A stretch of DNA of 32,000 nucleotides from Pyrolobus fumarii 1A (GCF_000223395.1 NC_015931.1:600001-632000), one strand, 5' to 3'. Shown: positions 4,150 through 32,000, counted from the first letter of the stretch. A program made the numbers and translations. Notes: a model not told the origin generated them from the letters alone.

Positions 4150-4413
4150 GTGGGATACGGGGGTGTTTGGAGCTTGTCTCGCGAGGTTGTAGTTAGGGTT
4201 AGAGTGCCTGCCCACTACACGGGGGACGTGGAGAGAGAGATTAGGCTGGCTTACGCCATAGACCTTTTCGTCCGCGGGGTGATTAGTGTTGAACGTGCAG
4301 CTGAGCTGGCTGACATGAGCCTCTACGACTTCCTCTACGAGCTCCGTAAGAGAGGGATAGTGGCCTACCAGTACAGCGACGAGGAGGCAAGGGAGGAGTT
4401 AAAAATTGAATAG
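4150..4413 (+). CDS. UPF0175-family (COG2886-like) antitoxin candidate.
   Basis: Small protein with the family-typical core REIRLAYAIDLFVRGVISVERAAELADMSLYDFLYELRKRGI. It overlaps the downstream PIN gene by 8 nt. The GTG start at 4150 is uncertain (TTG at 4174 is possible). Confidence 0.75.
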   Translation: MGYGGVWSLSREVVVRVRVPAHYTGDVEREIRLAYAIDLFVRGVISVERAAELADMSLYDFLYELRKRGIVAYQYSDEEAREELKIE

Positions 4414-4906
4414 ACGCTGTATTGTGGTCAACTCGAGTGTCGTAATAGCCCTAGCGCGGGTGAACCTACTAGACGTCATAATCAGACTCTACAAAGAAGT
4501 CATCATACCCTCTGCGGTATATGACGAGGTCGTGATTAGAGGTCAGGGTAGGCCTGGATCCGAGGAGCTTGAAATGCTGGTACAGCAAGGTAAAGCTAGG
4601 CTTCTCAGTCCAGGCGATAAGAGGCTAGTAGAGGCGTTACACGATCCACTGGGCCTCGGTGAAGCAGAAGCGATAGCACTAGCGCTTGAACATGGTTGCA
4701 TCGTTGCGCTCGATGATAGAATTGCTAGATCCAAAGCCAGGTCTATGGGGTTGAAGGTTATAGGCACGCTTGGACTTCTACGGGAAGCTTACGATACAAA
4801 CATCATAGATAAGGATAGGTTAATCCAAAGCCTAGAGCAACTTAGACAACACGGTTTCAGGATATCGGAGCGTGTATTACGGGAACTTATAGGTAAGCTG
4901 GGTTAA
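4406..4906 (+). CDS. PIN-like nuclease of the DUF3368/COG2405 type; toxin partner of UPF0175.
   Basis: Motifs GLGEAEAIALALE, VALDDRIARSKARSMGLKVIGTLGLL and IIPSAVYDEV. Translationally coupled to the upstream antitoxin-like gene. The N-terminal strand reads VVNSS, where many PIN domains have an Asp. Confidence 0.8.
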   Translation: MNRRCIVVNSSVVIALARVNLLDVIIRLYKEVIIPSAVYDEVVIRGQGRPGSEELEMLVQQGKARLLSPGDKRLVEALHDPLGLGEAEAIALALEHGCIVALDDRIARSKARSMGLKVIGTLGLLREAYDTNIIDKDRLIQSLEQLRQHGFRISERVLRELIGKLG

Positions 4907-5470: not shown

Positions 5471-5878
5471 TTGAGCCTGGAGGAGTTGTTCAAGGAGCTT
5501 GAGAGGATACGACGCATACTACAAGCTTACGGCTTGATGCCCGTCGAGGAGTATGAGCCCCCGTTCGACCCCCGCGAAGGCATACTCCACCCACTCTACA
5601 GCCTCGAGCCCGAAGAAGAGTACTACAGGGTGCTTGTTGACCTGCCGGGAGCCGATATGGACACTCTGCGAGTATACACTGAGGGCAACGACCTCGTGAT
5701 TGAGGCTAGCCTGGAGAGAGCCGTCGAGATAGAGACGCCATGGAGCCTCGAGAGGAGGGTAGTGCTGCGAAGATACCGCAGAAGGATACCACTGCCACCA
5801 GATGCAGATCCAAGCGGCCTCAAACTGCGCGTCTATCCCTCGCGCAAGATAATTGAGGTTCTTATCCCTCGGCGTTAG
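5471..5878 (+). CDS. Small heat-shock protein, Hsp20/alpha-crystallin family.
   Basis: YYRVLVDLPGADMDTLRVYTEGNDLVIEA ... RRIPLPPDADPSGLKLRVYPSRKIIEVLIPR fits the alpha-crystallin domain pattern. TTG start. Confidence 0.8.
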   Translation: MSLEELFKELERIRRILQAYGLMPVEEYEPPFDPREGILHPLYSLEPEEEYYRVLVDLPGADMDTLRVYTEGNDLVIEASLERAVEIETPWSLERRVVLRRYRRRIPLPPDADPSGLKLRVYPSRKIIEVLIPRR

Positions 5879-7046
5879 CCTCGTGACGCCGCTTTCGTCT
5901 CCTTCTCCTCATCCTCATCACCATCATCGCTGCTACCGCGGCTAGACCCGCATATGTCGAGAGAACACCCGCGTCAACGACTATAATATCCGTGCTTGTA
6001 TAGGCGGCGCGCACCTTGCCGATGCCCGAGCACGCCAACGTTACATTAATCCACGCTTTCACGATCTCAACGGGTAGCGGCGAGAGCGGCTTGTAGACCG
6101 CTACACTCTCTCCAATCTCTCTCCTCGTAACGTTACCCACAACACCATTGATATCGTACTTTACCCTCTTATCGACTCCATGCATACCGGCAAAACCGTC
6201 AACGCTGCACCTTGTCGTGTTCATGGTTACTGTTATCCTGTAGTCGGCTCTGACAAGACCCCCGAACAACACCACTTGAAGCTTCTCCGCACTAAGACTG
6301 ACCCTCATGTATGCAGTCAACTTGCCTATAACAAAGAATGTCTCCTCAGCATCGCTACTTACGTCTGGCACTTCAACTGCAACCAGAACATGATGGCTCG
6401 TGCCGCGTTCGTAAGGCCCTAGGGTTATACAAGAACTTGTGCTAGCTACTAGCTCGCGCTTCTCCTCCAGCACGCGTTCCCCATCGACCAGCACCACTAC
6501 ATTAGCCTCGATTTTATCCACACCGAGCTTCTCGAGACCGTAGACGCCTAGGCCGTAGCATAGCCTCGCTGTGCGCGATACCGGATCGACCCTCAGGTCT
6601 AGTATCTCGGTGCGCACGCCAGGTACTAGGATGTTGACGGGAACCAGTATGACCGGCCTCGCACGGACGCCACTAGCCGTCTCCTCGGAAGGCCCAACGA
6701 CGTACACACCATACTTGTAGAAGCCCGGTCGAAGCGCAATAATCGTGACATTGATGCCGACGAGCCCGCCACCGCTATAGACGGGGGATAGTCTAACCTC
6801 TACGCCATCCCTTAACCCCATGAGGTGTACGGCGCGCCACTCTGTAGCCGGGACACCGAGAAACCGTATGACCACGCTGGTCCACTTACCCTGAGGCACG
6901 ACAGCATCAATGCGTGTGGGTGCAATTACGAATCCTTTGCCGCCAACCTCTGCGGCCAGAGCATGAGTGTGTGGTGCAAGGAGTAGGAGGAGTAATGTTG
7001 TGCTAAGGAGCAAAAAACGAGTGTTATACTCCAAGGTGTATGTCAC
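5862..7046 (-). CDS. Secreted protein with N-terminal signal peptide, Ig/beta-sandwich-looking body, C-terminal TM anchor and poly-Arg tail. Function unknown; chaperone-like is only a hypothesis.
   Basis: N-terminus LLLSTTLLLLLLAPHTHALA. C-terminus YAGLAAVAAMMVMRMRRRRRKRRHEANAEG. Four N-x-S/T sequons. The mature N-terminus GFVIAPTRIDAVVPQGKWTSVVIRF resembles the first strand region of PapD/FimC (ATRVIYPAGQKQVQLAVTN). It starts 1 nt after the upstream gene's stop. Confidence 0.7.
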   Translation of the reverse strand: MTYTLEYNTRFLLLSTTLLLLLLAPHTHALAAEVGGKGFVIAPTRIDAVVPQGKWTSVVIRFLGVPATEWRAVHLMGLRDGVEVRLSPVYSGGGLVGINVTIIALRPGFYKYGVYVVGPSEETASGVRARPVILVPVNILVPGVRTEILDLRVDPVSRTARLCYGLGVYGLEKLGVDKIEANVVVLVDGERVLEEKRELVASTSSCITLGPYERGTSHHVLVAVEVPDVSSDAEETFFVIGKLTAYMRVSLSAEKLQVVLFGGLVRADYRITVTMNTTRCSVDGFAGMHGVDKRVKYDINGVVGNVTRREIGESVAVYKPLSPLPVEIVKAWINVTLACSGIGKVRAAYTSTDIIVVDAGVLSTYAGLAAVAAMMVMRMRRRRRKRRHEANAEG

Positions 7047-7047
7047 C

Positions 7048-8238
7048 TCACACTTGTTGTATAGTCACATCGACTGTAGCCGTGTAGGTGCCCGCTGGTG
7101 CACCCACCGGGACTAGTATCAACGGCCAGATATGCAGGTATGGGTACTGGTTGCTCGCGTAGATGCCGGCTAGAACCGCGTTGTAAGGCACCGGGTATAC
7201 CGGCGTGAACACAAGGTTTATCGTGCCTGCAGTGGCATCTACACTACCATTTACAATGGCGTATAGCCTGGCAGTGCTACCATCAGCAAGCGTTATTGTA
7301 GCATTTATGACTGCAAATGCGGTCTGGTTGTAGTCATAGAACTTCACTGCGCTGGTAGGTACGCTAGTGCTATACCCGCCGACGAAAGCATAGTCGGCCG
7401 CCGTGTTAAGATCCACATAGCTAACTGTGCTAGCTGTTGTCGTCGCGTTGGATGTATCAACATCGTAATCGCAGCTACTGTGTATTATTAGTGCCTCGTC
7501 GCCGCTGAACGCATTGTTATTCGCTATGCTGCTATCCGGATCAGCTAGTAATAGACAAACAGTCACCTGGGTTGCCTTGACATACGTGTCAGTTGCTGGG
7601 TCATATTTTATCTGAACCACTGGTATAGTGACTTGCTTCGCATATATGTATGGGTACCATTCGGTCTCGTTGAGCGTACCGCTATTAGTCGATGGCTCAG
7701 ACTCGTAAAGTGTGTTTAGAAAGCCCTCTGGAAGATCGATCCACGTTAACTGCGATAACGCTGTACTATACTGTGTGCCGAGGTTGTCCGCACTCTTGTC
7801 GAGAGTTATAGTGAAGGTTTTTACAGTGTAGATGGCTGTCGAGGATAATGCTTCACTTGTGTTCACCGAGTCTATCTTGTAGGTTGCGCCGAGCAGGGGC
7901 TGCGCTAAGCCGGCTGGGTAAGATGGTGGCAGCGAGAAGGTAACAGAGTAGTAGACTGTGAAGTTGACGTTCACACCCGTTAGGTTGAGTATAACATCAT
8001 CTTTTGTGGTTGTGTTGACCCACATGTTCCAACCGTCATAGTTCATTGTCTTGACTGTCGCGGGGTCCACCTTGATGCTCGAAGTGCCGTCTACAACGGT
8101 TGCTCCGGTAAAGCCGGTCACGCTGACTGTTACGGTTGCCGTCTGGCTACCCGCTAGAAGCAAACTGGGTGTAAGTATGGCCGTAACAATGACTACTGCT
8201 ATCAAGAAAACGCCTCGGCGCACCATCACTACCCCCAA
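7048..8238 (-). CDS. Secreted Thr/Ser/Val/Asn/Tyr-rich, probably all-beta, N-glycosylated surface protein (candidate filament or adhesin subunit).
   Basis: Signal-like N-terminus MVRRGVFLIAVVIVTAILTPSLLLAGS. Nine N-x-S/T sequons. An alternating-hydrophobic segment ATVTVSVTGFTGATVV follows the signal. The C-terminal strand is GTYTATVDVTIQQV. The DNA is more A+T-rich than its neighbours. Confidence 0.7.
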   Translation of the reverse strand: MGVVMVRRGVFLIAVVIVTAILTPSLLLAGSQTATVTVSVTGFTGATVVDGTSSIKVDPATVKTMNYDGWNMWVNTTTKDDVILNLTGVNVNFTVYYSVTFSLPPSYPAGLAQPLLGATYKIDSVNTSEALSSTAIYTVKTFTITLDKSADNLGTQYSTALSQLTWIDLPEGFLNTLYESEPSTNSGTLNETEWYPYIYAKQVTIPVVQIKYDPATDTYVKATQVTVCLLLADPDSSIANNNAFSGDEALIIHSSCDYDVDTSNATTTASTVSYVDLNTAADYAFVGGYSTSVPTSAVKFYDYNQTAFAVINATITLADGSTARLYAIVNGSVDATAGTINLVFTPVYPVPYNAVLAGIYASNQYPYLHIWPLILVPVGAPAGTYTATVDVTIQQV

Positions 8239-8498
8239 TCAATTATGGGTATGGTGCCCGCATGTAACAAGTTAAAAATTGATAGTATAAATTATGACTG
8301 ATGCATACATCTAATCATGATTTCATGTACTTATACGGATTCTGGTATCAATCATACTGTCCATACAAAGCGCGGGAAGGATACTGGTAGTCGGTATTCG
8401 TTTCAAATCTGCGGCAACGAGTTTACCCACGTGTATAGTCATGGTGTAGTATATACGGCACGGCCGCACACCCGAGCGCGGAGAGGGTACAAAAAGCC
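8239..8498. promoter_or_regulatory. A+T-rich divergent promoter region between the 8238<-5862 operon and the pilin-like gene.
   Basis: 260 bp with several TATA-like boxes (ttaaaaattgatagtataaatta near 8272-8295; tagtatatac near 8447-8456). The only ORF here (8317-8529) is low-complexity and overlaps the pilin start. Confidence 0.4.
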
Positions 8499-9086
8499 AT
8501 GTTTGTCCGGTGCATCTCGCCGATCGTAGCTAGTATAATCATCATCTCCGTTACAATTGCGATTGCCATTGCAGTGGCTGGTTTTGCATTCAACATATTC
8601 ACAGGGTATCAGGAGAAAGGTGAGGTACTGCGAGTGATTGACGCATATTTTTACTATACTCGCGAGCGTGTAAATACAATATGCACCGAGCCTCCCTGCG
8701 GGTTTCTAATAGCCAGGATACTTGTCGAGTCGGGGCACCCCACTGTGCTAGAGTTTACCCTCAACGACCTCACCTACAAGCCGTCATCATGCATATGGTA
8801 TACTAGTTCGAGTTACACACTAGACCCGGGCGACAATATAGTCGTGCTCACAAAACGACTATGCATTGTCGTATCGAAATACGCTGATCCAAACCGCTAC
8901 AACCTACTATACAAGCTCATGTATAGCGTGCAGAGCACATCCCAGTTACCTACTACCCTAAGGATACTGCTCATCAACTACCTCACGATACACACGGACA
9001 ACCCCACTCAACAACACTTCTCAATGCTAACGAGCAACGCAGTCTACAGGTATATCGTACCTGGCAGAAACGTGGAGCTCTCATAG
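8499..9086 (+). CDS. Archaeal type IV pilin-like protein (class III signal peptide, DUF361-like N-terminus).
   Basis: MFVRC-ISPIVASIIIISVTIAIAIAVAGFAFNIF matches the prepilin pattern (short basic leader, then xSPIIATxLLIxITVxxAxxVxxF). The position before the predicted PibD cut is Cys rather than the usual Gly/Ala. Confidence 0.7.
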   Translation: MFVRCISPIVASIIIISVTIAIAIAVAGFAFNIFTGYQEKGEVLRVIDAYFYYTRERVNTICTEPPCGFLIARILVESGHPTVLEFTLNDLTYKPSSCIWYTSSSYTLDPGDNIVVLTKRLCIVVSKYADPNRYNLLYKLMYSVQSTSQLPTTLRILLINYLTIHTDNPTQQHFSMLTSNAVYRYIVPGRNVELS

Positions 9087-9227: not shown

Positions 9228-9303
9228 GCCGGGGTAGCTCAGCTGGTAGAGCGCCGGGCTGTTAACCCGGTGGTCGGTGGTTCGAATCCACCCCCCGGCG
9301 CCA
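9228..9303 (+). tRNA. tRNA-Asn (anticodon GUU), CCA encoded.
   Basis: GCCGGGG-TA-GCTC-AGCTGGTA-GAGC-G-CCGGG-CTGTTAA-CCCGG-TGGTC-GGTGG-TTCGAAT-CCACC-CCCCGGC-G-CCA. The cloverleaf is perfect. Confidence 0.97.
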
Positions 9304-14299: not shown

Positions 14300-16393
14300 T
14301 CACGCTACCTCTTCTGACACCATTGTTGCCTTAGGCGGTGTTGTACGTCGAAGTCTCTTAGCGTCGAGTATTAGCGCCCCGGCTAGCCCAGCTAGCCGTG
14401 CTACTGTCGCGTAGGGCTCTGCTAGCATGTATGATGCTGCCTCAAGCATAGCTGGTAACAGTAGTCTCTCGTCGCGTAGTAATAGCGTTGCGGTGATTAG
14501 CGTTGATGCCTTGTCGCCTAGCAGGGCTAGCACCGCGTAGGGCGTCGTTGGTGTATACCTCGCTATGCCTATTGTCGCTGCTGCCGCAATAGCCGCTAGT
14601 ATGTGCTCCACTGGCGGAGGCTGCGCTATCCCAGCAATCCTTGCAAACGCGTACATCACGATTGCCGCTGCTAGTGTCGCGCGCCTCTCGCTGGCGAGTG
14701 GCAACGCTGCTACACTGGGGTAGACGAGGGGCAGTACCAGTGTTAGCCACGGCGCCTCTAGCATGGAGAGTGTCTCCAGGAGGAGTGTTGTGGCTGGTAG
14801 CGCGTAGCCCGTTGCCAGCATGGTCAGCGCTACACTACGCGGGTCTAGCCTCCTCCATAGCGCCGCTGTCGACGCTAGTACAGCAGTACTTGCGAGCACC
14901 AGGACCACGTCTATCTTCGATGATGGTGGTTGCGAGAGTAGGCCCGTGCCTACACCCCACCCGTTAACAGCGAGCACAGCGAGTATCGCGGCTAGCGGGG
15001 CACCCCTAGGCCCCATAAGCCTGGCCACCATCCCGACCTCCGGCGTTACGCGCCATGCGACCAACCCCCTCCTGACTAGCGCTGGGAGAACGCCAGCATA
15101 GCACAAGCCTATGGCGACCGCCGTGGCCGCTATGGCGGCCGGCTCGGCGACCGCCACGTAGAACGAGTAGAGCGTATGGTTCCCGCCGATATAGACGAGC
15201 GTCATGAGAAGGAGGAAGAGCGGTTCTATCGAGGCTATGAGTGCGAGTGAGGGTAGCGCAGGAGCAGCCGCAAGGAGTATCAGGGAGGATGCCAGACCGG
15301 AGATCATGATTGCGGGGTTAGGCGAGGCGACTATCTTTGGTTCGATGCTTAGGGTGAAGCCGGGGCCTCCCGTCAACCAGTCGAGTGGGTTGTTAGCGAC
15401 TGGGCCCGGAGGCCTGCTCGTGAGGAACCACTCGAGTCCGTTGATAGTCTCTTTGGCTAGCCTGTCGGGGCCCATGGCGGCGACTAGAGGCAGGTAGACC
15501 ACCGCCGCTGCGACAATGACGAGTATGATGCCTCTCAGGGTGCTACGGTACTCTCTGGTGGATAGCCTGTCCCAGAGGAGGATAGCGGCTAGGAAAACAA
15601 TGCCGGTGTACTTGGTGAGCGTCGAGAGAGCGGCTAGTATGTAGGCTGCTCGTCTCTTCCCGGCTGCCGCGGCAGCCAGAGCCAGGTAGCCGAGGCCGAG
15701 CGTGAACGGCTCTAGTATGGCGAATCCAGCCACTCCAGCTATGCTGGAGCGCCCCGTCGCGACCGCGACTAGCGCCAGAGCAACGAGCCCGGCCGCTATC
15801 CCTGCAGACACGCCCCCGGCCGCAATTGCGATGTACACGGTTGTTGCTGTGAGTGCGGCAACGCCGAGCACCGCTAGGGTCGAGGATGGTAGCCTCCAGT
15901 AGGCGGGGCAATCGCCCAGGAGGCTCATCGATATGCCTATGAGGTACTTGGCGAGCGGCGGGTGCTCGAGGTTGAGGTACGAGCCTATGTTGTCCTTATC
16001 CGGGTAGGTGTAGCAGCATCTTGTAGCCGTGGCGCCGTATTCTCCCTTCACCGGCCAGGGTAGCACCGCAGCAGTCGCGTTGTAGTATAGGGTTGCGTTG
16101 GGCGGCGCTCTTGCCAGCATGGCGGCTGTACTGTTGTAGAATAGCGTAGCGTAGGCCTTGCCGCCGCATGGGCGCGGGGTTAAGCCTAGGATGTAGTCGA
16201 GGTTCCTCGCGGCGGAGACGTACCATACCTCGTCGCTGACATACCTATCCAGGAGTGTGGCATTGTAGGATGTCGCGACAACATAAGCCCCGTGGACCAG
16301 GCCCGCCGCGAGCGCAAAGAGCAGCACGATGAGCTTAGCGCGTCTAGAGGCTCCACCCAATACTCTTAGCCCTGGGGCACCGGGTACAGCCAA
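14300..16393 (-). CDS. Polytopic GT-C glycosyltransferase, family 39/PMT_2-like (dolichyl-phosphate-sugar dependent).
   Basis: 697 aa with many hydrophobic helices. Loop-1 acidic motif SDEVWYVSAARN and the hallmark EHPPLAKYLIG. Confidence 0.8.
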   Translation of the reverse strand: MAVPGAPGLRVLGGASRRAKLIVLLFALAAGLVHGAYVVATSYNATLLDRYVSDEVWYVSAARNLDYILGLTPRPCGGKAYATLFYNSTAAMLARAPPNATLYYNATAAVLPWPVKGEYGATATRCCYTYPDKDNIGSYLNLEHPPLAKYLIGISMSLLGDCPAYWRLPSSTLAVLGVAALTATTVYIAIAAGGVSAGIAAGLVALALVAVATGRSSIAGVAGFAILEPFTLGLGYLALAAAAAGKRRAAYILAALSTLTKYTGIVFLAAILLWDRLSTREYRSTLRGIILVIVAAAVVYLPLVAAMGPDRLAKETINGLEWFLTSRPPGPVANNPLDWLTGGPGFTLSIEPKIVASPNPAIMISGLASSLILLAAAPALPSLALIASIEPLFLLLMTLVYIGGNHTLYSFYVAVAEPAAIAATAVAIGLCYAGVLPALVRRGLVAWRVTPEVGMVARLMGPRGAPLAAILAVLAVNGWGVGTGLLSQPPSSKIDVVLVLASTAVLASTAALWRRLDPRSVALTMLATGYALPATTLLLETLSMLEAPWLTLVLPLVYPSVAALPLASERRATLAAAIVMYAFARIAGIAQPPPVEHILAAIAAAATIGIARYTPTTPYAVLALLGDKASTLITATLLLRDERLLLPAMLEAASYMLAEPYATVARLAGLAGALILDAKRLRRTTPPKATMVSEEVA

Positions 16394-18033: not shown

Positions 18034-18273
18034 TTAACTCAACCCATACTCGATCATAGTTGTGTAGAGGCGCCTAACGTTGTCTATGCACGGGCTTCTC
18101 CTCACCCTATACACCAGCCTCCTCAACCCAGGCTCTTCGTCAAGCAAAGCCTTTGTAGCAGCATGGAGGAGACGCCTACCATCGCTATTGAGGCAGTCCC
18201 TCTTGTCCCAGTAGCGCCTCTCACCGTGGAAATCGTCCAGGAGCAACCTAAGCAGGTTAACAGCCTCAGACAT
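18034..18273 (-). CDS. Small hypothetical protein (79 aa).
   Basis: Balanced charged composition and genome-typical codons (AGG, GAG, CTC). The overlapping plus-strand ORF 18028-18303 is Pro-rich and looks spurious. No family recognised. Confidence 0.4.
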   Translation of the reverse strand: MSEAVNLLRLLLDDFHGERRYWDKRDCLNSDGRRLLHAATKALLDEEPGLRRLVYRVRRSPCIDNVRRLYTTMIEYGLS

Positions 18274-19426: not shown

Positions 19427-20710
19427 TCATTGTAATATGTGGACGTGAAACACTGGCGGCCAATCCTTGACCCATACACCCCTGACCGGATCCCAAATAG
19501 CATGCTTCAATATATCGTCGGGAACAACAGCAGCATGAGACTTGACATACACTACGCCATATTCAGGCGGAAGCATGTAATCATTAGCGACATACTCGTC
19601 AACTATTCTCGGCACGCTGTTAAAGTCTGGTAGCGACGAGCTAAACATGAACATGTGTAGATAGCATCCCGAAGCTCTTACAACCTCTATTCTTGCAGTT
19701 CCATTAGTAAACACCGTGAATCGTACAACATGGTCAACATAGTTATCGAGTGATTCTCCTGTACCAGGCCACCAGAGATCCTCCCATAGTATAAGTGCGT
19801 CTATAACTACCTCTTGAGAGTCCTGCACCAGAGCTTTCATGTCAAACACGTACTCGTTACCATAAATGTCTATGACTCTAACCGTGTAGTCTTTACTCGC
19901 ACTATACGGGTTTATGAACACCACTACCGGGCCTAGGTTATACCGCTCAGTCCAGAATAGCCTGCTAAGATCTAATACGCTTACATTGACTAGTATCGTT
20001 GCTCTTCCCTGAGCGTCAACAGTATAACTACCGTCAATGTACCTTAGTTTGTACTCTCCTTTGATTAGGTCGACATACACCCAGTGGATATAGTTGCTAT
20101 CTGTCCAAAGGTTTCCTATCGTACACTCGCCTGCACGTCCTGCAACCAAGCCTATGACGATGGGCTTCACTTTCCTCAGTGTTACAGCGTCTACCACTCC
20201 AGTAGCAATACCAACACCACTACTTGTCGCAAGCACGATACGTATCTTACTAGTCTGGAACAGTTCGCCATGCAACATCACAAGCGGTATGACTATACGT
20301 TTCACCTCGCCAGGCTCTAGTTTGATCGGAGGATTGACGCCGATAGCTGCAAGCAAGTCGCCATGCTCGTTATACACGTAGATAACATCTATCTTGTGTT
20401 CGCCCTGGAGCCCACGAACATAAAGTTCTAGGTAGCCTGCTCCCACCTTAACAGCCTCTACTGTAGCCGCACTACGCATAACCACGACAGCCTTGCCCGC
20501 ACTCGCACCCGTCTCGCTAGAAGCTCCAGTCGTATAGATGTACACAAAGACGCCAGTAACCACCGCGATAAGCACGAGTACAATAACTGCGAGTGTCAAA
20601 CTGGCGGCGCGCACTGCACCAGCTATCTCCACAGCCCTCTCCATACCACCACCTACACTATTAATGAGCCCACGAGAGACAAGAAATCCCTTCAAATCCT
20701 CTATTAGCAT
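19427..20710 (-). CDS. Large pilin-like or surface protein with a class III-signal-like N-terminal hydrophobic helix; function unknown.
   Basis: ...AVRA-ASLTLAVIVLVLIAVVTGVFVYIYTTG is followed by a beta-rich ~350-aa body. A+T-rich relative to its neighbours. The start may be the internal Met (MERAVEIAG...). Confidence 0.6.
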   Translation of the reverse strand: MLIEDLKGFLVSRGLINSVGGGMERAVEIAGAVRAASLTLAVIVLVLIAVVTGVFVYIYTTGASSETGASAGKAVVVMRSAATVEAVKVGAGYLELYVRGLQGEHKIDVIYVYNEHGDLLAAIGVNPPIKLEPGEVKRIVIPLVMLHGELFQTSKIRIVLATSSGVGIATGVVDAVTLRKVKPIVIGLVAGRAGECTIGNLWTDSNYIHWVYVDLIKGEYKLRYIDGSYTVDAQGRATILVNVSVLDLSRLFWTERYNLGPVVVFINPYSASKDYTVRVIDIYGNEYVFDMKALVQDSQEVVIDALILWEDLWWPGTGESLDNYVDHVVRFTVFTNGTARIEVVRASGCYLHMFMFSSSLPDFNSVPRIVDEYVANDYMLPPEYGVVYVKSHAAVVPDDILKHAIWDPVRGVWVKDWPPVFHVHILQ

Positions 20711-25082: not shown

Positions 25083-26267
25083 TTGCTGGAATTGAAGCAG
25101 AGGTACGATATAAGGAGGTTTACCACGGACAATACCGAGACTGATAAATTACGAATCTTGATAATGCTAAAGGACAGACTTCCAGCTTCATTTTCCAACT
25201 ACATAAGATACTTAGCTGAAGGCATTAGAAGGATTGCAAAATCACGTATTGAGTTGCTTTTCATACACATTAACGATTTTAAAGGCTTAGCTTGTAAGGA
25301 TAAAGGTCACGATAGGATAGTTCTACATATACCCTTCCTAGGAGACGGCAGTTACCCAAGATTGTATGACTTACTTAAAGCGAAAATGTGCAAAATGAAA
25401 GTCGTAGTGACGTTACACGGTTTCAACACTTGTGCAGCACGTCACGAGCTAATGGCCCGAAGCATGCCATGTCCACATGAATATTGCAGTACTAAACGAG
25501 TATTATATGATGTTAGGAAGAAAATACTGTGGAATATCATTTCAAGAATAGCGTTAGTAGATGCCATTATCACTCCTTCTTGGTCGGAGAAAAATGTCCT
25601 AATGAAATGCCTAGGAATACCAGAGAAACGTATATACGTAATACACCATGGTGTGGACACTGATTTGTATAGACCTCGTTCGCGGAAGGAATGTTCCCAT
25701 ATCCTAGCCAAATACAAAATTGGTGATAGTTACATCCTTCACGTGAGCAATTATCAACCTGTGAAGAACGTCGAAAGGATAGTTGCCGCATATGCTCTAC
25801 TTAAGAGGAAGTTTGGAATTAAAGAGAAGCTCGTTATTGCCGGTAGACAGCCCCGAGAGCGAATATTACGCCTCGCTATTAGCCTTGGTTTAAACCCTAG
25901 GGATATCATCTTTACCGGGGTAGTTTCAAGAGACGATCTCCCATGCCTATATAGTGCCGCTAAAGTACTTGTAATGCCAAGCATACATGAGAGCTTTGGC
26001 ATGCCCATCCTTGAGGCTATGGCCTGTGGATGTCCAGTGGTGACATCAAGCGTTTATGCATGTGTAGAAGTTTCTGATAATGCAGCTCTGATTGTTGACC
26101 CATTTGACGTGAAGGAAATTGCAATGAGTGTTTATAAAATACTTGCAGATGATGAATTGAGAGCGGAGCTTATACGTAGAGGCATAACCAGAACAAAATC
26201 GTTCACTTGGGAGAAATCAGTCTTAATGCATCTTAAAGTGTATGAGACTGTTACTGGATCAAGGTGA
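25083..26267 (+). CDS. Group 1 (GT4-family) glycosyltransferase.
   Basis: E-x7-E motif region ESFGMPILEAMACGCPVVTS. Upstream block LVIAGRQP...GVVSRDDLPCLYSAAKVLVMPS. TTG start is uncertain. Two ttatact TATA-like boxes lie at ~25046 and ~25059. Confidence 0.88.
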   Translation: MLELKQRYDIRRFTTDNTETDKLRILIMLKDRLPASFSNYIRYLAEGIRRIAKSRIELLFIHINDFKGLACKDKGHDRIVLHIPFLGDGSYPRLYDLLKAKMCKMKVVVTLHGFNTCAARHELMARSMPCPHEYCSTKRVLYDVRKKILWNIISRIALVDAIITPSWSEKNVLMKCLGIPEKRIYVIHHGVDTDLYRPRSRKECSHILAKYKIGDSYILHVSNYQPVKNVERIVAAYALLKRKFGIKEKLVIAGRQPRERILRLAISLGLNPRDIIFTGVVSRDDLPCLYSAAKVLVMPSIHESFGMPILEAMACGCPVVTSSVYACVEVSDNAALIVDPFDVKEIAMSVYKILADDELRAELIRRGITRTKSFTWEKSVLMHLKVYETVTGSR

Positions 26268-27235
26268 GTATCGTGATAAAGCTAATTGCGTCAAGAGCTT
26301 ACCTGTTTGTAAGAAGCACGTTAAACAAAATGCTGATACCCAAGGGTTTTGTAGCAGTGAAAGTTAATGATAATCAATTGTTCTTTTTCGATCCCTCTAA
26401 CTCCTCTCAGGGATTTCTGCTTTACACCACTGGCAAGTATGGATCTGGAACAGAACTATTAGCACAATTGTTCTTTTCACACATTATTAAGAATGGTTAT
26501 GTTGTTGTCGACGTCGGGGCTCATTTTGGTTTTTACACTCTGATTGCAGCTGCAAAAGTTGGTAAATCCGGACTCGTCATGGCCTTTGAACCTAGTAAAA
26601 CGAACTTCCGCGTCTTAAGAGTGAACATCTTAGCAAATAGACTTACAAATGTTAAGCTTTACAAGGTAGCATTGGCGGATGAGAATGGTAGAGCTGTTTT
26701 AGGTGTTCCTAGAGGGCGCTTGTCCGGAGAGAATACACTAGCTGTTAACCCTTCACAAGCAGAGCAGCTTGAAGTTGTTGAAGTAAGAAGGTTTGACGAG
26801 ATAGCGGAAGAAGAAGGGATAAGCAAAGTGGATGTCGTAAAGATAGATGTTGAGGGAGCAGAGTATAAGGTTCTCAAGGGATTCGGGAATTATCTGGACA
26901 CATGTAAGTATATAATCTTAGAGGTTCATCCAAGCCAGATGGTTAAGCTTGGTACAAGCCCAAAGGAACTCTACGCTTTGCTAAATAGACATGGTTACAA
27001 CCTATATTGGCTCGACAAGAAAGCTGGGATTATCCCCGTATCCCATAACAGGCTTATGTCCAAGATATTGACGCGACATCACCTGATTTGCGCAAAACAA
27101 GACTTAGAATTGGACAAAATAAGACTAAGGCTTATGAAGTATGACTTGATAGTTAAATCCTCATTTACTAGAAGACAGAGGTTGGCAATGTTGTTTAACA
27201 ATCCCAAGTATATATTTAGAAGACAAAATATCTAA
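26264..27235 (+). CDS. FkbM-family SAM-dependent methyltransferase.
   Basis: VVVDVGAHFGFYTLIAA (SAM motif I) and VDVVKIDVEGAEYKVLKG (FkbM signature). 4-nt overlap with the GT4 gene. Confidence 0.85.
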   Translation: MSIVIKLIASRAYLFVRSTLNKMLIPKGFVAVKVNDNQLFFFDPSNSSQGFLLYTTGKYGSGTELLAQLFFSHIIKNGYVVVDVGAHFGFYTLIAAAKVGKSGLVMAFEPSKTNFRVLRVNILANRLTNVKLYKVALADENGRAVLGVPRGRLSGENTLAVNPSQAEQLEVVEVRRFDEIAEEEGISKVDVVKIDVEGAEYKVLKGFGNYLDTCKYIILEVHPSQMVKLGTSPKELYALLNRHGYNLYWLDKKAGIIPVSHNRLMSKILTRHHLICAKQDLELDKIRLRLMKYDLIVKSSFTRRQRLAMLFNNPKYIFRRQNI

Positions 27236-27378
27236 GGCTTTATTAAGTTAGATGCTGGATACGTATCGTCCTTCAAACACGAGCGATAATATTTCGCATC
27301 GAAGGCGATGCTTAACTTGCCGCCTAAAGGTTATAGTTTTAGTTAACTCTCGAGAGCTACTTTCGGGAGATAAAAGCA

Positions 27379-28950
27379 ATGCTTTTACATGACGGTAGTC
27401 GTGTGTCATTGATAGGTATCGACGGTGGTAATTGGCACGTACTACATTGGTTAATTAACGACGGTTATATGCCAAATTTAAAGGAGATTACAACGAGAGG
27501 AGCAAGTGGCATTTTAATTTCACTTATACCGCCGGTAACCGCACCTGCTTGGCTTTCTATAGCAACTGGTTTAACACCTGGTGAAACAGGCGTAATTGAC
27601 TTCTTTAAGGTCATTGATACGAGTAGTTATAGTCTGGAACTAGTCTCTGCAAAGGATTATAAAGGAAGGTCTATATGGGATTATGCCTCATTAATTGGTT
27701 ATAAAGTTGCAGTGTTAGACTACCCGCTTCTGTACCCGGCTTACCAGGTAAATGGTATCATGGTATCATCGTGGGGTGGTAAGGTCACAACATACCCAGA
27801 GGACTACATTAATACCATTCGCGAGCTAGTAGGCGAGTATAACATAATAGTCAGTTACAACAATATAGAGTATAATGACCTTGATTTATTCCTTGAGCAC
27901 ATCGAGAAAGCAGCCAATGTAAAGCTACGGGTGTCTAACCATACCCTCAGCCTTGCTAAATGGGATCTGTTCGTAGATGTCATCTCCTTTACGGACTGGC
28001 TTCAACATAGAATGTGGCATGTTATAGATAATAACCATCCTCTGCATCGTAGAGTTCCTAATGTAGGGTATTACCGAAGACGTTTTGCTGAACTCTGGTC
28101 GATCCTAGACGAGTATATCGGAAAGATTAGGGACAACTTTGACATCGTGATAATAGTCTCTGATCATGGTTTTGGACCACACTGGGGAGTACTAAACATC
28201 GTCAAGTTGTTTGAAGCTAAGGGACTTATCAAGATACGTAGATTGAGCAGCAAAGAAAGATTGCTAGCCAGGATAATTGACATTGTAAGACACACTAAAC
28301 TGCGTAATATTATTCCTAAAAGAGCCCGCACTGTAGGCAGAAAGATGTATAAGCAACTTAGAAGCATCAACAAACATTTAGACATTGATGCGAGCTTAGT
28401 CATTATACCTGAGTTCACAATACCCTTCGGGGGCGTATTTGTCAATAGCAAGTTTAGCGATAAGCGCGATGATATAATAAAAAAGATTGTTGACGCGCTT
28501 AGATGGATCGAAGAGAATACCAACGGTAATGTGAGAATAAGATACTGGTTGAAAGAGGAGATATATGATGGCCCATATGTGGAAAAATTGCCGGATATAA
28601 TACTTGCCGTTAATGACTGGAAGAGTGTGGTAGTAAAGAGCCTCGAGGGTCCTATCTATAAGGATGACGTCTATTCTCCTCGGCATACCGGAAGCCACAG
28701 AATGGAAGGTATAATCATCGTGGATGGCACGAGAGTCAAGAAGAAGAATATCAAAGCCCATGTGACAGATGTTGCACCAACATTGATGTACATCATGGGA
28801 TTGCCTATACCATCTAATATTAAAGGACGTGTTCTACGAGAAATAGTGGAACTAGATAGGGAGCCCATACATGTTGACCCAACATATTATGCTAAGCTTA
28901 GACTCCGCATGAAGCTAAGACAAACGCTGAGACCGGATAAACCAACATGA
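27379..28950 (+). CDS. Alkaline-phosphatase-superfamily enzyme (type I phosphodiesterase/nucleotide pyrophosphatase-like), soluble.
   Basis: IGIDGGNW, PPVTAPAWLSIATGLTPGETG (nucleophile Thr block), VSDHGF and HTGSHRMEGI. No TM segments seen. Confidence 0.8.
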   Translation: MLLHDGSRVSLIGIDGGNWHVLHWLINDGYMPNLKEITTRGASGILISLIPPVTAPAWLSIATGLTPGETGVIDFFKVIDTSSYSLELVSAKDYKGRSIWDYASLIGYKVAVLDYPLLYPAYQVNGIMVSSWGGKVTTYPEDYINTIRELVGEYNIIVSYNNIEYNDLDLFLEHIEKAANVKLRVSNHTLSLAKWDLFVDVISFTDWLQHRMWHVIDNNHPLHRRVPNVGYYRRRFAELWSILDEYIGKIRDNFDIVIIVSDHGFGPHWGVLNIVKLFEAKGLIKIRRLSSKERLLARIIDIVRHTKLRNIIPKRARTVGRKMYKQLRSINKHLDIDASLVIIPEFTIPFGGVFVNSKFSDKRDDIIKKIVDALRWIEENTNGNVRIRYWLKEEIYDGPYVEKLPDIILAVNDWKSVVVKSLEGPIYKDDVYSPRHTGSHRMEGIIIVDGTRVKKKNIKAHVTDVAPTLMYIMGLPIPSNIKGRVLREIVELDREPIHVDPTYYAKLRLRMKLRQTLRPDKPT

Positions 28951-29207
28951 GAATATCATACAAGTAACTCCTCAATAAATTGCAAGCGAAGCGCGTCTAC
29001 ACTCCTGCTTAGCGCCAATTGGAAGATTGTTAATAGTTATAATCCTCGAAAGGCACGGATGATGCTTCAAACAGAGAGGTCCGAGATCCAGAAGCAGCCT
29101 TCTCGCAAAGTGCAACAAGAAAAGATAAATACAACTCGTAATCGCATACAGTTTCAAGTCATGTTACAGCATGATATTGCAAGAGCAACACGTTTACGAG
29201 TAAGATG

Positions 29208-29285
<78 letters not shown>

Positions 29286-29461
29286 TCCCCCTTCTCCATC
29301 ACTCACTGTTCCAGATATCCAAGTTTTAAGCAGTCTTGCACCCGAAGCCTATAACGTACATTACAACGTATGATGCACTCTGTTGGCATGCTATCAATCA
29401 ACGAAACGCACCGGGATTGTTTTAGTATGTTGTTGGTGCCGCTCGTGTCTGGTGGCCGGTT

Positions 29462-30025
29462 ATGCCTTTTCGCCTCTTTAAGCGTCTCGATATACCCGAC
29501 GTTGTTCTGATAGAGGCTGTGAGGTTTCACGATCAGCGTGGCTTCTTCCAGGAGCTTTACAAGAGGACTGATTTCCTTGCTAACAACGTGCCGTATGACT
29601 TCGTGCAGGTTAATGTGAGCTTCTCGAGGAGGGGTGTTGTTAGGGGTTTGCACTACCAGTTGAAGCCTATGGAGCAGGGTAAGCTCGTGACCGTACTAAG
29701 GGGTAGGATTGTGGATGTAGCGGTTGACATTAGGAGGGGGTCGCCTTGGTACGGGAAGCATGTGATGGTGGAGCTCTCGGAGGATAAGCCTTTGCTTCTT
29801 TGGATTCCTCCGGGGTTTGCCCACGGTTTCCAGGCGCTCGAGGATAGTGTTGTGCTCTACCTGGTGACTAAGGAGTATTCTCCGAGCCATGAGCGTTGCA
29901 TACGCTGGGATGACCCGGACCTGGGTATACCATGGCCGATGAGGGACAACGTGATACTTAGCGAGAAGGATAAGAGGTGCCCGTCGTTTAGAGACGCTGA
30001 GTCGAACTTCGACTACCCCCTCTAG
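29462..30025 (+). CDS. rmlC: dTDP-4-dehydrorhamnose 3,5-epimerase.
   Basis: RGFFQE, VRGLHYQ, QGKLVTVLRGRIVDVAVDIRRGSPWYGK, LWIPPGFAHGFQAL and IRWDDPDLGIPWP. Confidence 0.93.
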   Translation: MPFRLFKRLDIPDVVLIEAVRFHDQRGFFQELYKRTDFLANNVPYDFVQVNVSFSRRGVVRGLHYQLKPMEQGKLVTVLRGRIVDVAVDIRRGSPWYGKHVMVELSEDKPLLLWIPPGFAHGFQALEDSVVLYLVTKEYSPSHERCIRWDDPDLGIPWPMRDNVILSEKDKRCPSFRDAESNFDYPL

Positions 30026-30095
30026 TATCACATTACAGCACAAACCATTGTTAACATGGTGTTGTAGGAGAGGCTCCTCCCTCCTTCCCATATAC

Positions 30096-31151
30096 TCATG
30101 TCTCCTCGAGGCTGAACCTCTCCTCTACAACCCTCCTATCCACCTTCAACAGCCTCGCCGCCACAAGTAGCTTCGCGATGTCAATGGGTTTGAGTTTGAT
30201 GAGAGGCGCCTTGGTGATGTCTATGCGCCCCTCTTTCTCTACGACCCTCTCTGCTATCCTCTTACCGTCACGCCACGCTTTCAAGAACTGCTTGAATAGT
30301 CCTAGGTTTTTGACTGCGAGCGGCACTGTGAACAGCTTCCTGGTGTAGAGTAGCCTTATGACTAGCTTAGCCTTGGTGGTTATGTTGGTCGCGTGGTAGA
30401 GGAAGGACCAGCACCTGGCGCTGAGGTACACACGGTATGGCTTGACGCGCCCAAATGTCGAACCCCTAGAGTGTCTCGCCGCTATGAAGGGGAAGGATGC
30501 TACCCGGTACCCGGCGTGCCACAGTTTAAGCCCAAGAACATTATCGTCGCAATAGGCGAACAGCTCATCGTAGAACATGCGGTTTGTATTATTTGCTTTC
30601 AACACGGCCTCCACGCGCCAGATGGAGTAGGCACCGTAGGCATAGGTTATGTAGACTGGTTTCTTCATAGCTGTCGGCGGCTTGCCATGGAGGTAAGAGG
30701 CGCCGAATATGTACTCACTTAGGTACTCGCCAGCTGTGTCTATCAATCCGGTTCTGGGATCAAGTATTATACCTTGAGCTGCGCCAAGGTATGGTCTCGC
30801 TTCCATCTCTTCGACAAGCCGCGTTACGCTATCCGGCTCGGGCATGGCATCGTTGTTCAGAAGGATGACGTATTTCGATTCTGGATCGCGTGCCTGGAAG
30901 GCCGCGTTGACGCCGCCGGTGAAGCCTAGGTTGGTATTCATGCGGAGTATTTTGGCGCGGCTTCCGAGCTTCTCCTCTATGAAGCTCTTTACCTTCTCGT
31001 AGCTGCCGTCCGTTGAGCCATTGTCAACCACTATGAGCTCGTAGTTAGGATAGTCTAGGTTTTTGACGCCCTCGAGGGATGCAAGTACATCCTCTATTAT
31101 CGGCATGCTGTTGTAGTTCAACCATATTATCGTGACCTTGGGGTACGGCAC
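30096..31151 (-). CDS. Family 2 glycosyltransferase (GT-A fold; rhamnosyltransferase-like by context).
   Basis: VTIIWLNYNS, YELIVVDNGSTDGS and VILLNNDAMPEPD. It lies 13 bp downstream of rmlD on the same strand. Confidence 0.88.
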   Translation of the reverse strand: MPYPKVTIIWLNYNSMPIIEDVLASLEGVKNLDYPNYELIVVDNGSTDGSYEKVKSFIEEKLGSRAKILRMNTNLGFTGGVNAAFQARDPESKYVILLNNDAMPEPDSVTRLVEEMEARPYLGAAQGIILDPRTGLIDTAGEYLSEYIFGASYLHGKPPTAMKKPVYITYAYGAYSIWRVEAVLKANNTNRMFYDELFAYCDDNVLGLKLWHAGYRVASFPFIAARHSRGSTFGRVKPYRVYLSARCWSFLYHATNITTKAKLVIRLLYTRKLFTVPLAVKNLGLFKQFLKAWRDGKRIAERVVEKEGRIDITKAPLIKLKPIDIAKLLVAARLLKVDRRVVEERFSLEET

Positions 31152-31164
31152 TGTTGTCCGCCCC

Positions 31165-32000
31165 TTAGCCTGTCTGCCTTAACTCCCTCCTAAGCTCCTC
31201 TAGGGCAGCCTCGTGATCCCAGAATGGCACGCTACCAACCAGTTGCCGCGCCAGCGTAACATCTAGGCTAGAGTCTCGCGGACGCGGCGCGATGAACTGC
31301 AGCTCCTCGAGTTTTACAGGCTTAACCAGGTCTTTTGGCAGCCCGAACTTCTCGGCTATCATGAGTGCGAACTCATACCTACTCACTCTCGACCCGGCGA
31401 TGTGCAAAACCCCGTGTTCAACGGCCTCGTCCAGCTTCTCTAGGAGTGTTAGCAGCGCACGCGCCAGGAGAGTGTTGAGTGTGGGGGAGTACCACTGGTC
31501 TATGGCTGCGTGTATCTCCTCTCCTCTCCCTAGTTTCTCGATAACGACTATCGGGAAGGTCTTCTTGCCCGGCCCGCTGCCGTAGATTCCACTCGTTCTC
31601 ACGACTACACCGTTAGCTGCGAGTACGGGTGTCTCTCCCGCGAGCTTCGTCAAGCCATAGTAGTTGATGGGCGATGGGGCGTCATCCTCACGATACTGGC
31701 CGCGTCTCCCGTCAAACACGTAGTCCGTCGAGATGTATACGATGCGGGCTCCGACGCGCACCGAGGCCCTAACCAACGCGATTGTCGAGAGCGTGTTAAC
31801 CCTCCATGCCATCTCCCTCTCCTTCTCGCAGGCGTCGACATTAGTGAAGGCGGCAAGGTGGAACACTACATCGGGCTTATGCTCTTGCACTACATCTACG
31901 AGCCTCTCGGGCTCGGTCAGGTCGAGTTGCAGCTTGATGCACTCGCTGCACGTCGCGGGGGGCTTTGAACGGTAGAGTGCTATGATGTCGAACCCCTTGT
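31165..32000 (-). CDS. rmlD: dTDP-4-dehydrorhamnose reductase; the 5' end lies beyond the window edge.
   Basis: KPDVVFHLAAFTNVDACE, YISTDYVFDG and YGLTKLAGE (YxxxK). The frame stays open upstream of the ORF-track GTG (31890) to nt 31998 (KGFDIIALYRSKPPATCSECIKLQLDLTEPERLVDVV...), so the gene continues past 32000. Confidence 0.9.
   Translation of the reverse strand, partial: KGFDIIALYRSKPPATCSECIKLQLDLTEPERLVDVVQEHKPDVVFHLAAFTNVDACEKEREMAWRVNTLSTIALVRASVRVGARIVYISTDYVFDGRRGQYREDDAPSPINYYGLTKLAGETPVLAANGVVVRTSGIYGSGPGKKTFPIVVIEKLGRGEEIHAAIDQWYSPTLNTLLARALLTLLEKLDEAVEHGVLHIAGSRVSRYEFALMIAEKFGLPKDLVKPVKLEELQFIAPRPRDSSLDVTLARQLVGSVPFWDHEAALEELRRELRQTG

Follow-up and report, generated by a model that had tools for sequence, protein, structure and literature searches.

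Three adjacent genes of Pyrolobus fumarii 1A, here called A, B, and C, are real, conserved, lineage-restricted orphan genes of the cell envelope, and we tentatively read A and B as a membrane-tethered, two-component surface glycoprotein complex that is accompanied by a co-regulated, pilin-like C. The genes lie in a stretch of 32,000 nt (GCF_000223395.1 NC_015931.1:600001-632000; hereafter the window), and positions are counted from its first letter. We favor the tethered complex because B resembles an anchor, because A resembles an unanchored, glycosylated partner whose translation is apparently coupled to that of B, and because no gene of the conserved locus resembles polymerization machinery. 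The evidence supports exported, membrane-anchored, and pilin-like proteins as the products of the trio, whose elements are as follows:

7048-8238, minus strand: gene A (Pyrfu_0660), a 396-aa open reading frame (ORF) for a secreted, beta-rich protein with nine sequons
5862-7046, minus strand: gene B (Pyrfu_0659), a 394-aa ORF for a type I membrane protein
8499-9086, plus strand: gene C, 195 aa, with a class III (prepilin-type) signal, divergent from A-B
8227-8498, no strand: divergent intergenic region between A and C, 43.8% G+C

All three ORFs had been called in an initial annotation of this DNA and are present where it placed them. ORF A is 100% identical to Pyrfu_0660 and ORF B is Pyrfu_0659; both are annotated as hypothetical, and we found no literature under either locus tag. 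The start of A is likely the ATG at 8226, giving 392 aa as in the annotation of Pyrfu_0660, because a conserved GGAGGT-type Shine-Dalgarno element (visible when the sequences upstream of A in five homologous loci are aligned) and the N termini of the homologues place it there. B most likely starts at the TTG at 7034, giving 390 aa, again as annotated, and its GAGGTG Shine-Dalgarno sequence overlaps the stop codon of A. With these revised starts the gap between A and B becomes 13 nt, so the 1-nt spacing initially reported does not hold, while the back-to-back arrangement does and the conclusion drawn from it is unchanged: A and B clearly form an operon. The spacer between A and C measures 260-272 bp and has a G+C content of 43.8% compared with 54.6% for the window, in agreement with the A+T-rich, 260-bp divergent spacer described previously. 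TATA-like elements lie upstream of A (TTTATA at 8291-8286, minus strand) and of C (TATATA at 8450-8455, plus strand). The earlier observation that no PilB/PilC-type gene is nearby extends to the whole 32 kb, in which we found no gene for a pilus ATPase, a platform protein, a prepilin peptidase, a dedicated signal peptidase, or an usher-like protein.

B Is Predicted to Be an Anchored Stalk Rather than a Chaperone

B begins with a signal sequence and, as had been noted, ends in a single transmembrane (TM) helix (residues 361-377, nt 5916-5966) followed by a poly-Arg tail, RMRRRRRKRR (nt 5886-5915). Its AlphaFold2 model, built from four homologues with a mean predicted local distance difference test score (pLDDT) of 71.8, consists of the signal peptide, three tandem beta-sandwich domains (residues ~44-141, 143-240, and 245-358; nt ~5973-6917), and a single long C-terminal helix. 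Beyond the signal peptide it contains no helix except the TM segment with its tail, and domains 2 and 3 each hold one conserved Cys pair. B went unrecognized in comparisons with Pfam, NCBIfam, and the PDB sequence set. Foldseek searches of PDB and BFVD with the model returned, among the 50 matches listed for each library, generic tandem Ig-like arrays with TM-scores of at most 0.27, among them ciliary central-apparatus proteins, IL-23R, contactin FN3, RbmA, and alpha2-macroglobulin, as well as DUF11, Hoc, and Big-1. No pilus chaperone occurs among the 50 matches listed for either library. Some of the top matches, the ciliary central-apparatus proteins, are presumably ASH-domain proteins, and we take ASH to be a fold grouped with PapD/MSP.

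The initial annotation had likened the mature N terminus of B to that of bacterial PapD/FimC chaperones. We compared B with four such proteins from Escherichia coli K-12, FimC, SfmC, YadV, and YehC. As a positive control, FimC matched PapD_N (PF00345) at 3.2e-38 and PapD_C (PF02753) at 4.6e-11 in Pfam; neither domain was detected in B, in scans of the whole protein, of its single domains, and of four homologues. Alignment of the B family with the four chaperones in hhalign recovered only KGFVIAPTRI / AGVALGATRV (probability 0.15%, E = 0.39), which is the same 10-residue resemblance that had been spotted by eye. In PapD-type chaperones the cleft residues Arg8 and Lys112 bind the C-terminal carboxylate of the subunit, and an alignment of the four chaperones shows no variation at T43, R44, and K148 (precursor numbering). 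In five B homologues the residue aligned with Arg8 varies (R, R, R, K, or Q), and the same hhalign comparison yielded no Lys of B alignable to Lys112. Nor does the predicted architecture, three beta-sandwich domains and a TM helix, correspond to a two-domain PapD-like fold. PapD homology of B was thus rejected on Pfam, hhalign, architecture, and Foldseek, and the chaperone reading is largely refuted at the level of sequence and architecture. On its model, B is instead predicted to be a membrane-anchored stalk of three Ig-like domains. The idea of an "archaeal PapD" goes back to a chance match of 10 residues and should not be propagated, which makes this a useful negative result.

A Is a Candidate Glycoprotein of an Orphan Family

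A carries an N-terminal hydrophobic, Sec-type signal sequence and is rich in Thr (13.9%), Val (11.6%), Ala (10.1%), and Ser (8.1%). It contains exactly nine N-x-S/T sequons, confirming the earlier count, against an expectation of 4.6 +/- 1.8 in composition-preserving shuffles (p ~0.02). Both segments quoted by the initial annotation were found, ATVTVSVTGFTGATVV at residues 34-49 and GTYTATVDVTIQQV at residues 383-396. The first is an alternating strand (nt 8092-8139) kept in all full-length A homologues, whose alignment gives the pattern TGTVxVxVxG directly after the signal peptide. Further conserved features include an invariant core, LTWIDLPEGFLN...NETEWY.YTYAK.VT.P (nt 7621-7749), with KYDP further along, a single conserved Cys pair (C228/C256), an Asp-rich loop, CD[YF]D.D.SN.T (nt 7441-7473), that is followed by a sequon, and a C-terminal hairpin, LILVPVGAPAGTYTATVDVTI (pattern ...ILVP.GAPAG.Y.AT...). 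This hairpin reads like the ordinary last two strands (F-G) of a complete Ig-like domain, an assignment that draws on common motif knowledge and with which a low-confidence DSSP assignment of the A model agrees.

The AlphaFold2 model of A, made from a five-sequence alignment, has a mean pLDDT of 38 with no residue above 70, and Foldseek with this low-confidence model returned nothing below E = 4.5. Members of the A family have no Pfam or NCBIfam match, and a search of all PDB sequences with the A profile gave no relevant chain at E <= 10, including thread, TasA, AbpA, CanA, and CanX. By these comparisons A is an orphan. A solute-binding protein or enzyme was considered for A and set aside, as neither finds support in Pfam or NCBIfam. 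We also rejected A and B as paralogues, since hhalign aligns them over 7 N-terminal columns with a probability of 0.6%.

C Resembles Archaeal Type IV Pilins

The N terminus of C, MFVRC/ISPIVASIIIISVTIAIAIAVAG (nt 8514-8600), combines a class III signal with a hydrophobic helix, and the globular domain of ~150 aa has four conserved Cys. C scores below the family cut-offs of both Pfam Pilin_N (E = 1.1e-3, 20.3 bits; cut-off 25.2 bits) and TIGR02537 (18.3 bits; cut-off 20), and Pilin_N matches one of five C homologues. A profile of five C sequences matched eight PDB chains, seven of them archaeal type IV pilins and the eighth an archaellin, with E between 0.0024 and 0.65 and with the matches confined to the N-terminal helix. 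Residue -1 is Cys or Ser, compared with the usual Gly or Ala. The earlier description of C as pilin-like is upheld in that its N terminus is of pilin type and its profile matches only archaeal pilins and one archaellin, with family scores that stay below threshold.

The Trio Is Co-Conserved within the Pyrolobus Lineage

Co-conservation in relatives had been set in advance as a test of the module, and A, B, and C do stand side by side across related loci. The order of C divergent from A-B, and then a convergent HSP20 gene, recurs in all the related contigs that were recovered, namely L001 (GCA_053988995.1), L002 and L003 (GCA_054016755.1), and L004/L005 and L006 (the metagenome-assembled genome (MAG) "Pyrolobus sp.", WAOO01000127); L009, a short contig, holds C and A only. 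All three genes are under purifying selection, with ratios of nonsynonymous to synonymous substitution rates between L001 and L002 of 0.11 (A), 0.14 (B), and 0.10 (C). An exhaustive hidden Markov model search of 1.84 billion representative proteins with the A profile found five true relatives besides one false positive of low complexity; five A proteins and four B proteins came from word-indexed searches, and a scan of GTDB genomes added one locus. Two metagenome scans gave nothing, and no relative of A was found outside Pyrolobus-like genomes in the searches made. By sequence, then, A-B-C appears to be restricted to the Pyrolobus lineage.

Two further features of the window border the trio:

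5471-5878, plus strand: HSP20 small heat-shock gene, convergent with B, overlapping its 3' end by 17 nt
9228-9303, plus strand: tRNA-Asn (GTT), flanking C

The HSP20 neighbor is present in every related locus, although any functional link to A-B would be putative. The 17-nt tail-to-tail overlap of B and HSP20 (5862-5878) is likewise retained in all of them. To the right of C, genes for GAPOR, an RsmB-type methyltransferase, and an AP-endonuclease are syntenic in L004/L005, and the locus is therefore vertically inherited chromosome rather than an island. A mobile or viral origin, which we considered because of the low G+C content and the adjoining tRNA-Asn, was rejected: the flanks are syntenic in relatives, PHROGs gave nothing significant, and the BFVD matches are generic Ig arrays. 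A tRNA-shaped sequence, read by eye, lies at the equivalent position in L008 (GCA_054017235.1).

The trio is damaged in L008. A head-to-head deletion (L008:7337-8500) has taken away the promoter region and, with it, the 5' ends of both A and C, so that a C remnant of 117 aa without its N-terminal helix abuts an A remnant of 248 aa without its signal peptide; B is intact at 384 aa. The deletion is either pseudogenization of the module or a misassembly, and if it is not an assembly artifact, the module is dispensable. L008 is also the only locus with a T2SSF platform gene in its vicinity, at ~3 kb.

Several neighboring genes differ between the genomes. Beside the A-B-C locus, a protein of 1432-1436 aa is encoded at L001:4169-8467, L002:10887-15185, and L004:9714-14024. 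It has a signal sequence, faint N-terminal matches of beta-propeller type, many CarboxypepD_reg-type Ig domains, and a C-terminal TM anchor, and it weakly matches the Kustd1514 S-layer family (E = 4e-8, below cut-off); judged by these features, it is a plausible candidate for the long-stalk surface-layer (S-layer) protein of the lineage. The corresponding position in P. fumarii holds reverse gyrase, a CN hydrolase, and a toxin-antitoxin pair instead. That pair, a UPF0175 antitoxin-like gene with a PIN/DUF3368 gene (4150-4906, plus strand), lies between the CN hydrolase and HSP20 genes; because these two are adjacent in L008, it looks inserted in P. fumarii. A small ORF at 18085-18261 (minus strand) is 73% identical to a 75-aa Cys-rich protein encoded immediately downstream of C in L001 and L002; since 9 kb separate it from C in P. 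fumarii, it does not belong to the module as a fixed component.

Because the organism belongs to the Pyrodictiaceae, we also tested A for a link to cannulae. A first hhalign comparison aligned A residues 188-216 with a CanA-like N terminus (36% identity, 28 columns) at a probability of 1.6%, which a better profile of six sequences, CanX, CanA, and Hyper2 among them, lowered to 0.4%, and a cannula-like A was rejected. The neighbors of the trio in L002 do form a cannula-like cluster, as a profile of three of their proteins matches CanX (9h8b) at 2.7e-25 and CanA at 2.8e-17. This cluster (L002:814-6508, in the MAG GCA_054016755.1) lies ~0.7 kb past the C homologue with a 75-aa gene between. Besides a signal peptidase I of archaeal type (TIGR02228, 89 bits), it encodes three CanX/CanA-like proteins, which are 382, 198, and 170 aa long and the longest of which has an insertion of ~250 aa, and a P-loop ATPase with apparent C-terminal hydrophobic segments (read by eye). 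No such cluster is present in the P. fumarii window. A dedicated signal peptidase of SipW type is frequent, although not universal, in loci of donor-strand subunits; none was found in the window or in the conserved synteny of A-B-C, and the TIGR02228 peptidase of L002 belongs to the adjoining cluster with its own CanA-like genes.

A Proposed Tethered Surface Complex and Its Alternatives

In the complex that we propose, B would be exported through Sec, reach ~10-13 nm from the membrane with its three Ig-like domains, and be held by its single TM helix, the poly-Arg tail acting as a stop-transfer signal in the cytoplasm. A would likewise take the Sec route, lose its signal sequence to signal peptidase I, carry N-glycans on as many as nine sequons and, having no anchor of its own, be held noncovalently on B, a contact that we infer. 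Both would be translated from one mRNA, and the position of the B Shine-Dalgarno sequence over the stop codon of A suggests that similar amounts of the two proteins may be made. The arrangement would follow the logic of an outer protein plus anchor, as in SlaA/SlaB. Both a p4 S-layer (PMC5744192) and a 40-nm quasi-periplasm (PMC3156397) have been described for P. fumarii, and the complex would probably sit inside the latter, beneath the S-layer rather than forming it, because B is short. C, expressed from the shared divergent promoter region, would probably be a third component, either membrane-embedded or a short fiber. A role such as adhesion or envelope scaffolding may be envisaged.

A number of observations count against such a complex. 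The proposed contact between A and B rests on gene arrangement and anatomy, the coupling of the two genes in an operon is no proof of 1:1 stoichiometry, and the model of A is of low confidence (pLDDT 38). The alternating strand TGTVxVxVxG, placed ahead of a motif like the start of an Ig domain, has the appearance of a donor strand, and the co-conserved pilin-like gene hints at a fiber over a static complex. Finally, the G+C content at third codon positions (GC3) is 55-59% in A, B, and C compared with 72-80% in core genes, which fits accessory genes and is uninformative on function.

The alternatives differ mainly in whether A polymerizes and in what B does for it. The chief rival, doubtful although conceivable, is that mature A forms a donor-strand filament by inserting its N-terminal strand (residues ~33-49) into the next subunit, in the manner of thread, TasA, Abp, and cannula subunits, with B as a TafF-like anchor or terminator at the membrane and C either accessory or unrelated. 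Every full-length A homologue retains this strand, which follows the signal peptide immediately and precedes TG[YF]IAATP.D, which resembles the start of the first Ig domain of B, KGF[IV].[TA]P.R.D; this likeness, however, spans 7 columns at an hhalign probability of 0.6%. Like archaeal fiber subunits, of which heavy glycosylation and the lack of an anchor are typical (PMC9715654), A is predicted to be heavily glycosylated and unanchored, and one relative's locus adjoins a true cannula-like cluster. Anchored terminators have moreover been proposed both for Tafi, where TafF would be the membrane-anchored, subunit-like terminator of archaeal donor-strand fimbriae (PMC11821415), and for abpX loci, in which anchors are reported (bioRxiv 10.64898/2026.01.04.697558). 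A fiber of A anchored by B would resemble the TafA/TafF proposal, and the claim of the initial annotation that an anchored partner would be a new assembly logic is therefore weakened. Against polymerization, the search of PDB with the A profile brought up no chain at E <= 10, thread, TasA, AbpA, CanA, and CanX included, and CanA-like profiles align with A at only 1.6% and 0.4%. Mature A, at ~360 residues, is roughly twice as long as known subunits of this kind, and its C-terminal domain ends in an apparently complete F-G hairpin (by motif knowledge and low-confidence DSSP). In addition, the conserved locus lacks a dedicated SipW-type signal peptidase, and coupled translation of A and B, as the Shine-Dalgarno position suggests, would make it difficult to produce far more subunit than anchor. 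We consider it unlikely that A is the subunit of a sequence-unrelated class of donor-strand fiber with B as its anchor or platform and C priming or capping the fiber. In the model of the initial annotation, B would be an anchored PapD-like chaperone that caps a groove of A before donor-strand exchange. The Ig-like domains of B and the 10-residue resemblance at its mature N terminus speak for this model, but we regard it as scarcely credible, given the hhalign probability of 0.15%, the absence of PapD_N and PapD_C (3e-38 in FimC), three domains and a TM helix in place of two soluble domains, no chaperone among the top 50 structural matches listed, a variable residue in place of Arg8 among the B homologues, and the lack of both an usher-like gene in the window and an outer membrane.

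Other readings start from C or from the S-layer. C could be a major or minor pilin of a distant PilB/PilC-type machine, with A and B as pilus-associated proteins (for example, an adhesin and a base or alignment component). Its class III-type N terminus, its profile matches to archaeal pilins and one archaellin alone, its co-conservation with and divergent transcription from A-B, and the T2SSF platform gene ~3 kb away in L008 are consistent with such a pilus module, which we nevertheless consider improbable: all pilin scores of C are below threshold, one of five homologues matches Pilin_N, residue -1 is Cys or Ser rather than Gly or Ala, and neither the 32 kb nor the conserved synteny blocks hold an ATPase, a platform protein, or a prepilin peptidase. 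Moreover, proteins that do not belong to pili, the sugar-binding proteins of Sulfolobus among them, can carry class III signals. We judge it very unlikely that A and B make up the p4 S-layer itself as an analogue of SlaA/SlaB, with A as lattice glycoprotein and B as stalk. The gene order and protein features are like those of slaA-slaB, and the family is confined to the Pyrolobus lineage, which alone in the Pyrodictiaceae has a reported p4 rather than p6 lattice (PMC5744192). However, B has no coiled coil, and three Ig domains of ~12 nm are too short for the 40-nm quasi-periplasm (PMC3156397); A, at ~40 kDa, would be small for an 18.5-nm tetrameric unit cell. The GC3 of the genes is well below that of core genes, the L008 deletion makes the module look dispensable, and the 1432-1436-aa TM-anchored protein beside the locus in relatives is a better candidate.

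Other Features of the Window

An orphan ORF of 427 aa (19427-20710, minus strand; GC3 47%) has no Pfam or NCBIfam match, and its N-terminal segment, ...AVRAASLTLAVIVLVLIAVVTGVF, looks class III or pilin-type when read by eye. A membrane protein of 697 aa (14300-16393, minus strand) weakly matches PMT_2 (GT-C glycosyltransferase) and on this match is possibly a protein-glycosylation enzyme; its gene and the glycoprotein genes lie 5 kb apart. The region 25083-31890 is devoted to glycan biosynthesis. Here genes for a GT4 glycosyltransferase, an FkbM methyltransferase, and a type I phosphodiesterase, with ~40% G+C and a GC3 of ~40%, abut a tRNA-Arg (29208-29285); genes for RmlC, GT2, and RmlD come next. 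Horizontal transfer may have brought in the low-G+C block beside this tRNA.

Significance and Relation to Known Systems

The envelope of P. fumarii has so far been known from electron micrographs only. As a lineage-specific, co-inherited envelope set, the A-B-C trio offers a concrete target for surface proteomics and for cryo-electron tomography of the quasi-periplasm. If A does polymerize, a sequence-unrelated family would join the chaperone-free archaeal donor-strand fibers. A fiber built by the trio would represent a self-contained system of three genes that lacks an ATPase, an usher, and a dedicated peptidase, and the organism that made it would be one that grows at 113 °C.

Among known systems, PapD/FimC chaperones share with B the class of Ig-like beta-sandwich folds and the chance 10-residue N-terminal resemblance. 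They differ from it as soluble, two-domain boomerangs of ~200-240 residues, compared with three domains and a TM anchor in B, which has no family match, no conserved key Arg, and no usher. Archaeal type IV pilins (8fjs, 6nav, 6w8x) are like C in their short, positively charged leader, in a hydrophobic helix with an ISPI/ASII pattern, and in their beta-rich globular domain; C differs in its subthreshold scores, its larger, Cys-rich globular domain, and the absence of assembly genes nearby. The donor-strand fibers (the Saci_0406 thread, Abp/AbpX, CanA/CanX, and Tafi) show no profile similarity to A, which is about twice as long as their subunits and whose conserved locus has no dedicated signal peptidase I. 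A is nonetheless, like their subunits, a secreted, glycosylated, beta-rich candidate with a conserved N-terminal strand, B is like TafF of Tafi in being a membrane-anchored, Ig-like partner encoded beside the subunit candidate, and P. fumarii belongs to the Pyrodictiaceae, the family in which cannulae are found.

SlaA/SlaB of the Sulfolobales form a two-component S-layer. Pairs of that type are recognized by a long coiled-coil anchor stalk, a large lattice protein, and essential, highly expressed genes. A-B has no sequence similarity to them. SlaA is about three times as large as A, B has no coiled-coil stalk and cannot span the 40-nm space, and the A-B module is seemingly dispensable (L008) with noncore codon usage. 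The two systems are nevertheless alike in forming an operon in which the gene for an unanchored, heavily N-glycosylated, beta-rich outer protein comes first and is followed by one whose product is exported through Sec, has beta-sandwich domains in its N-terminal part, and is anchored by one TM helix at the C terminus.

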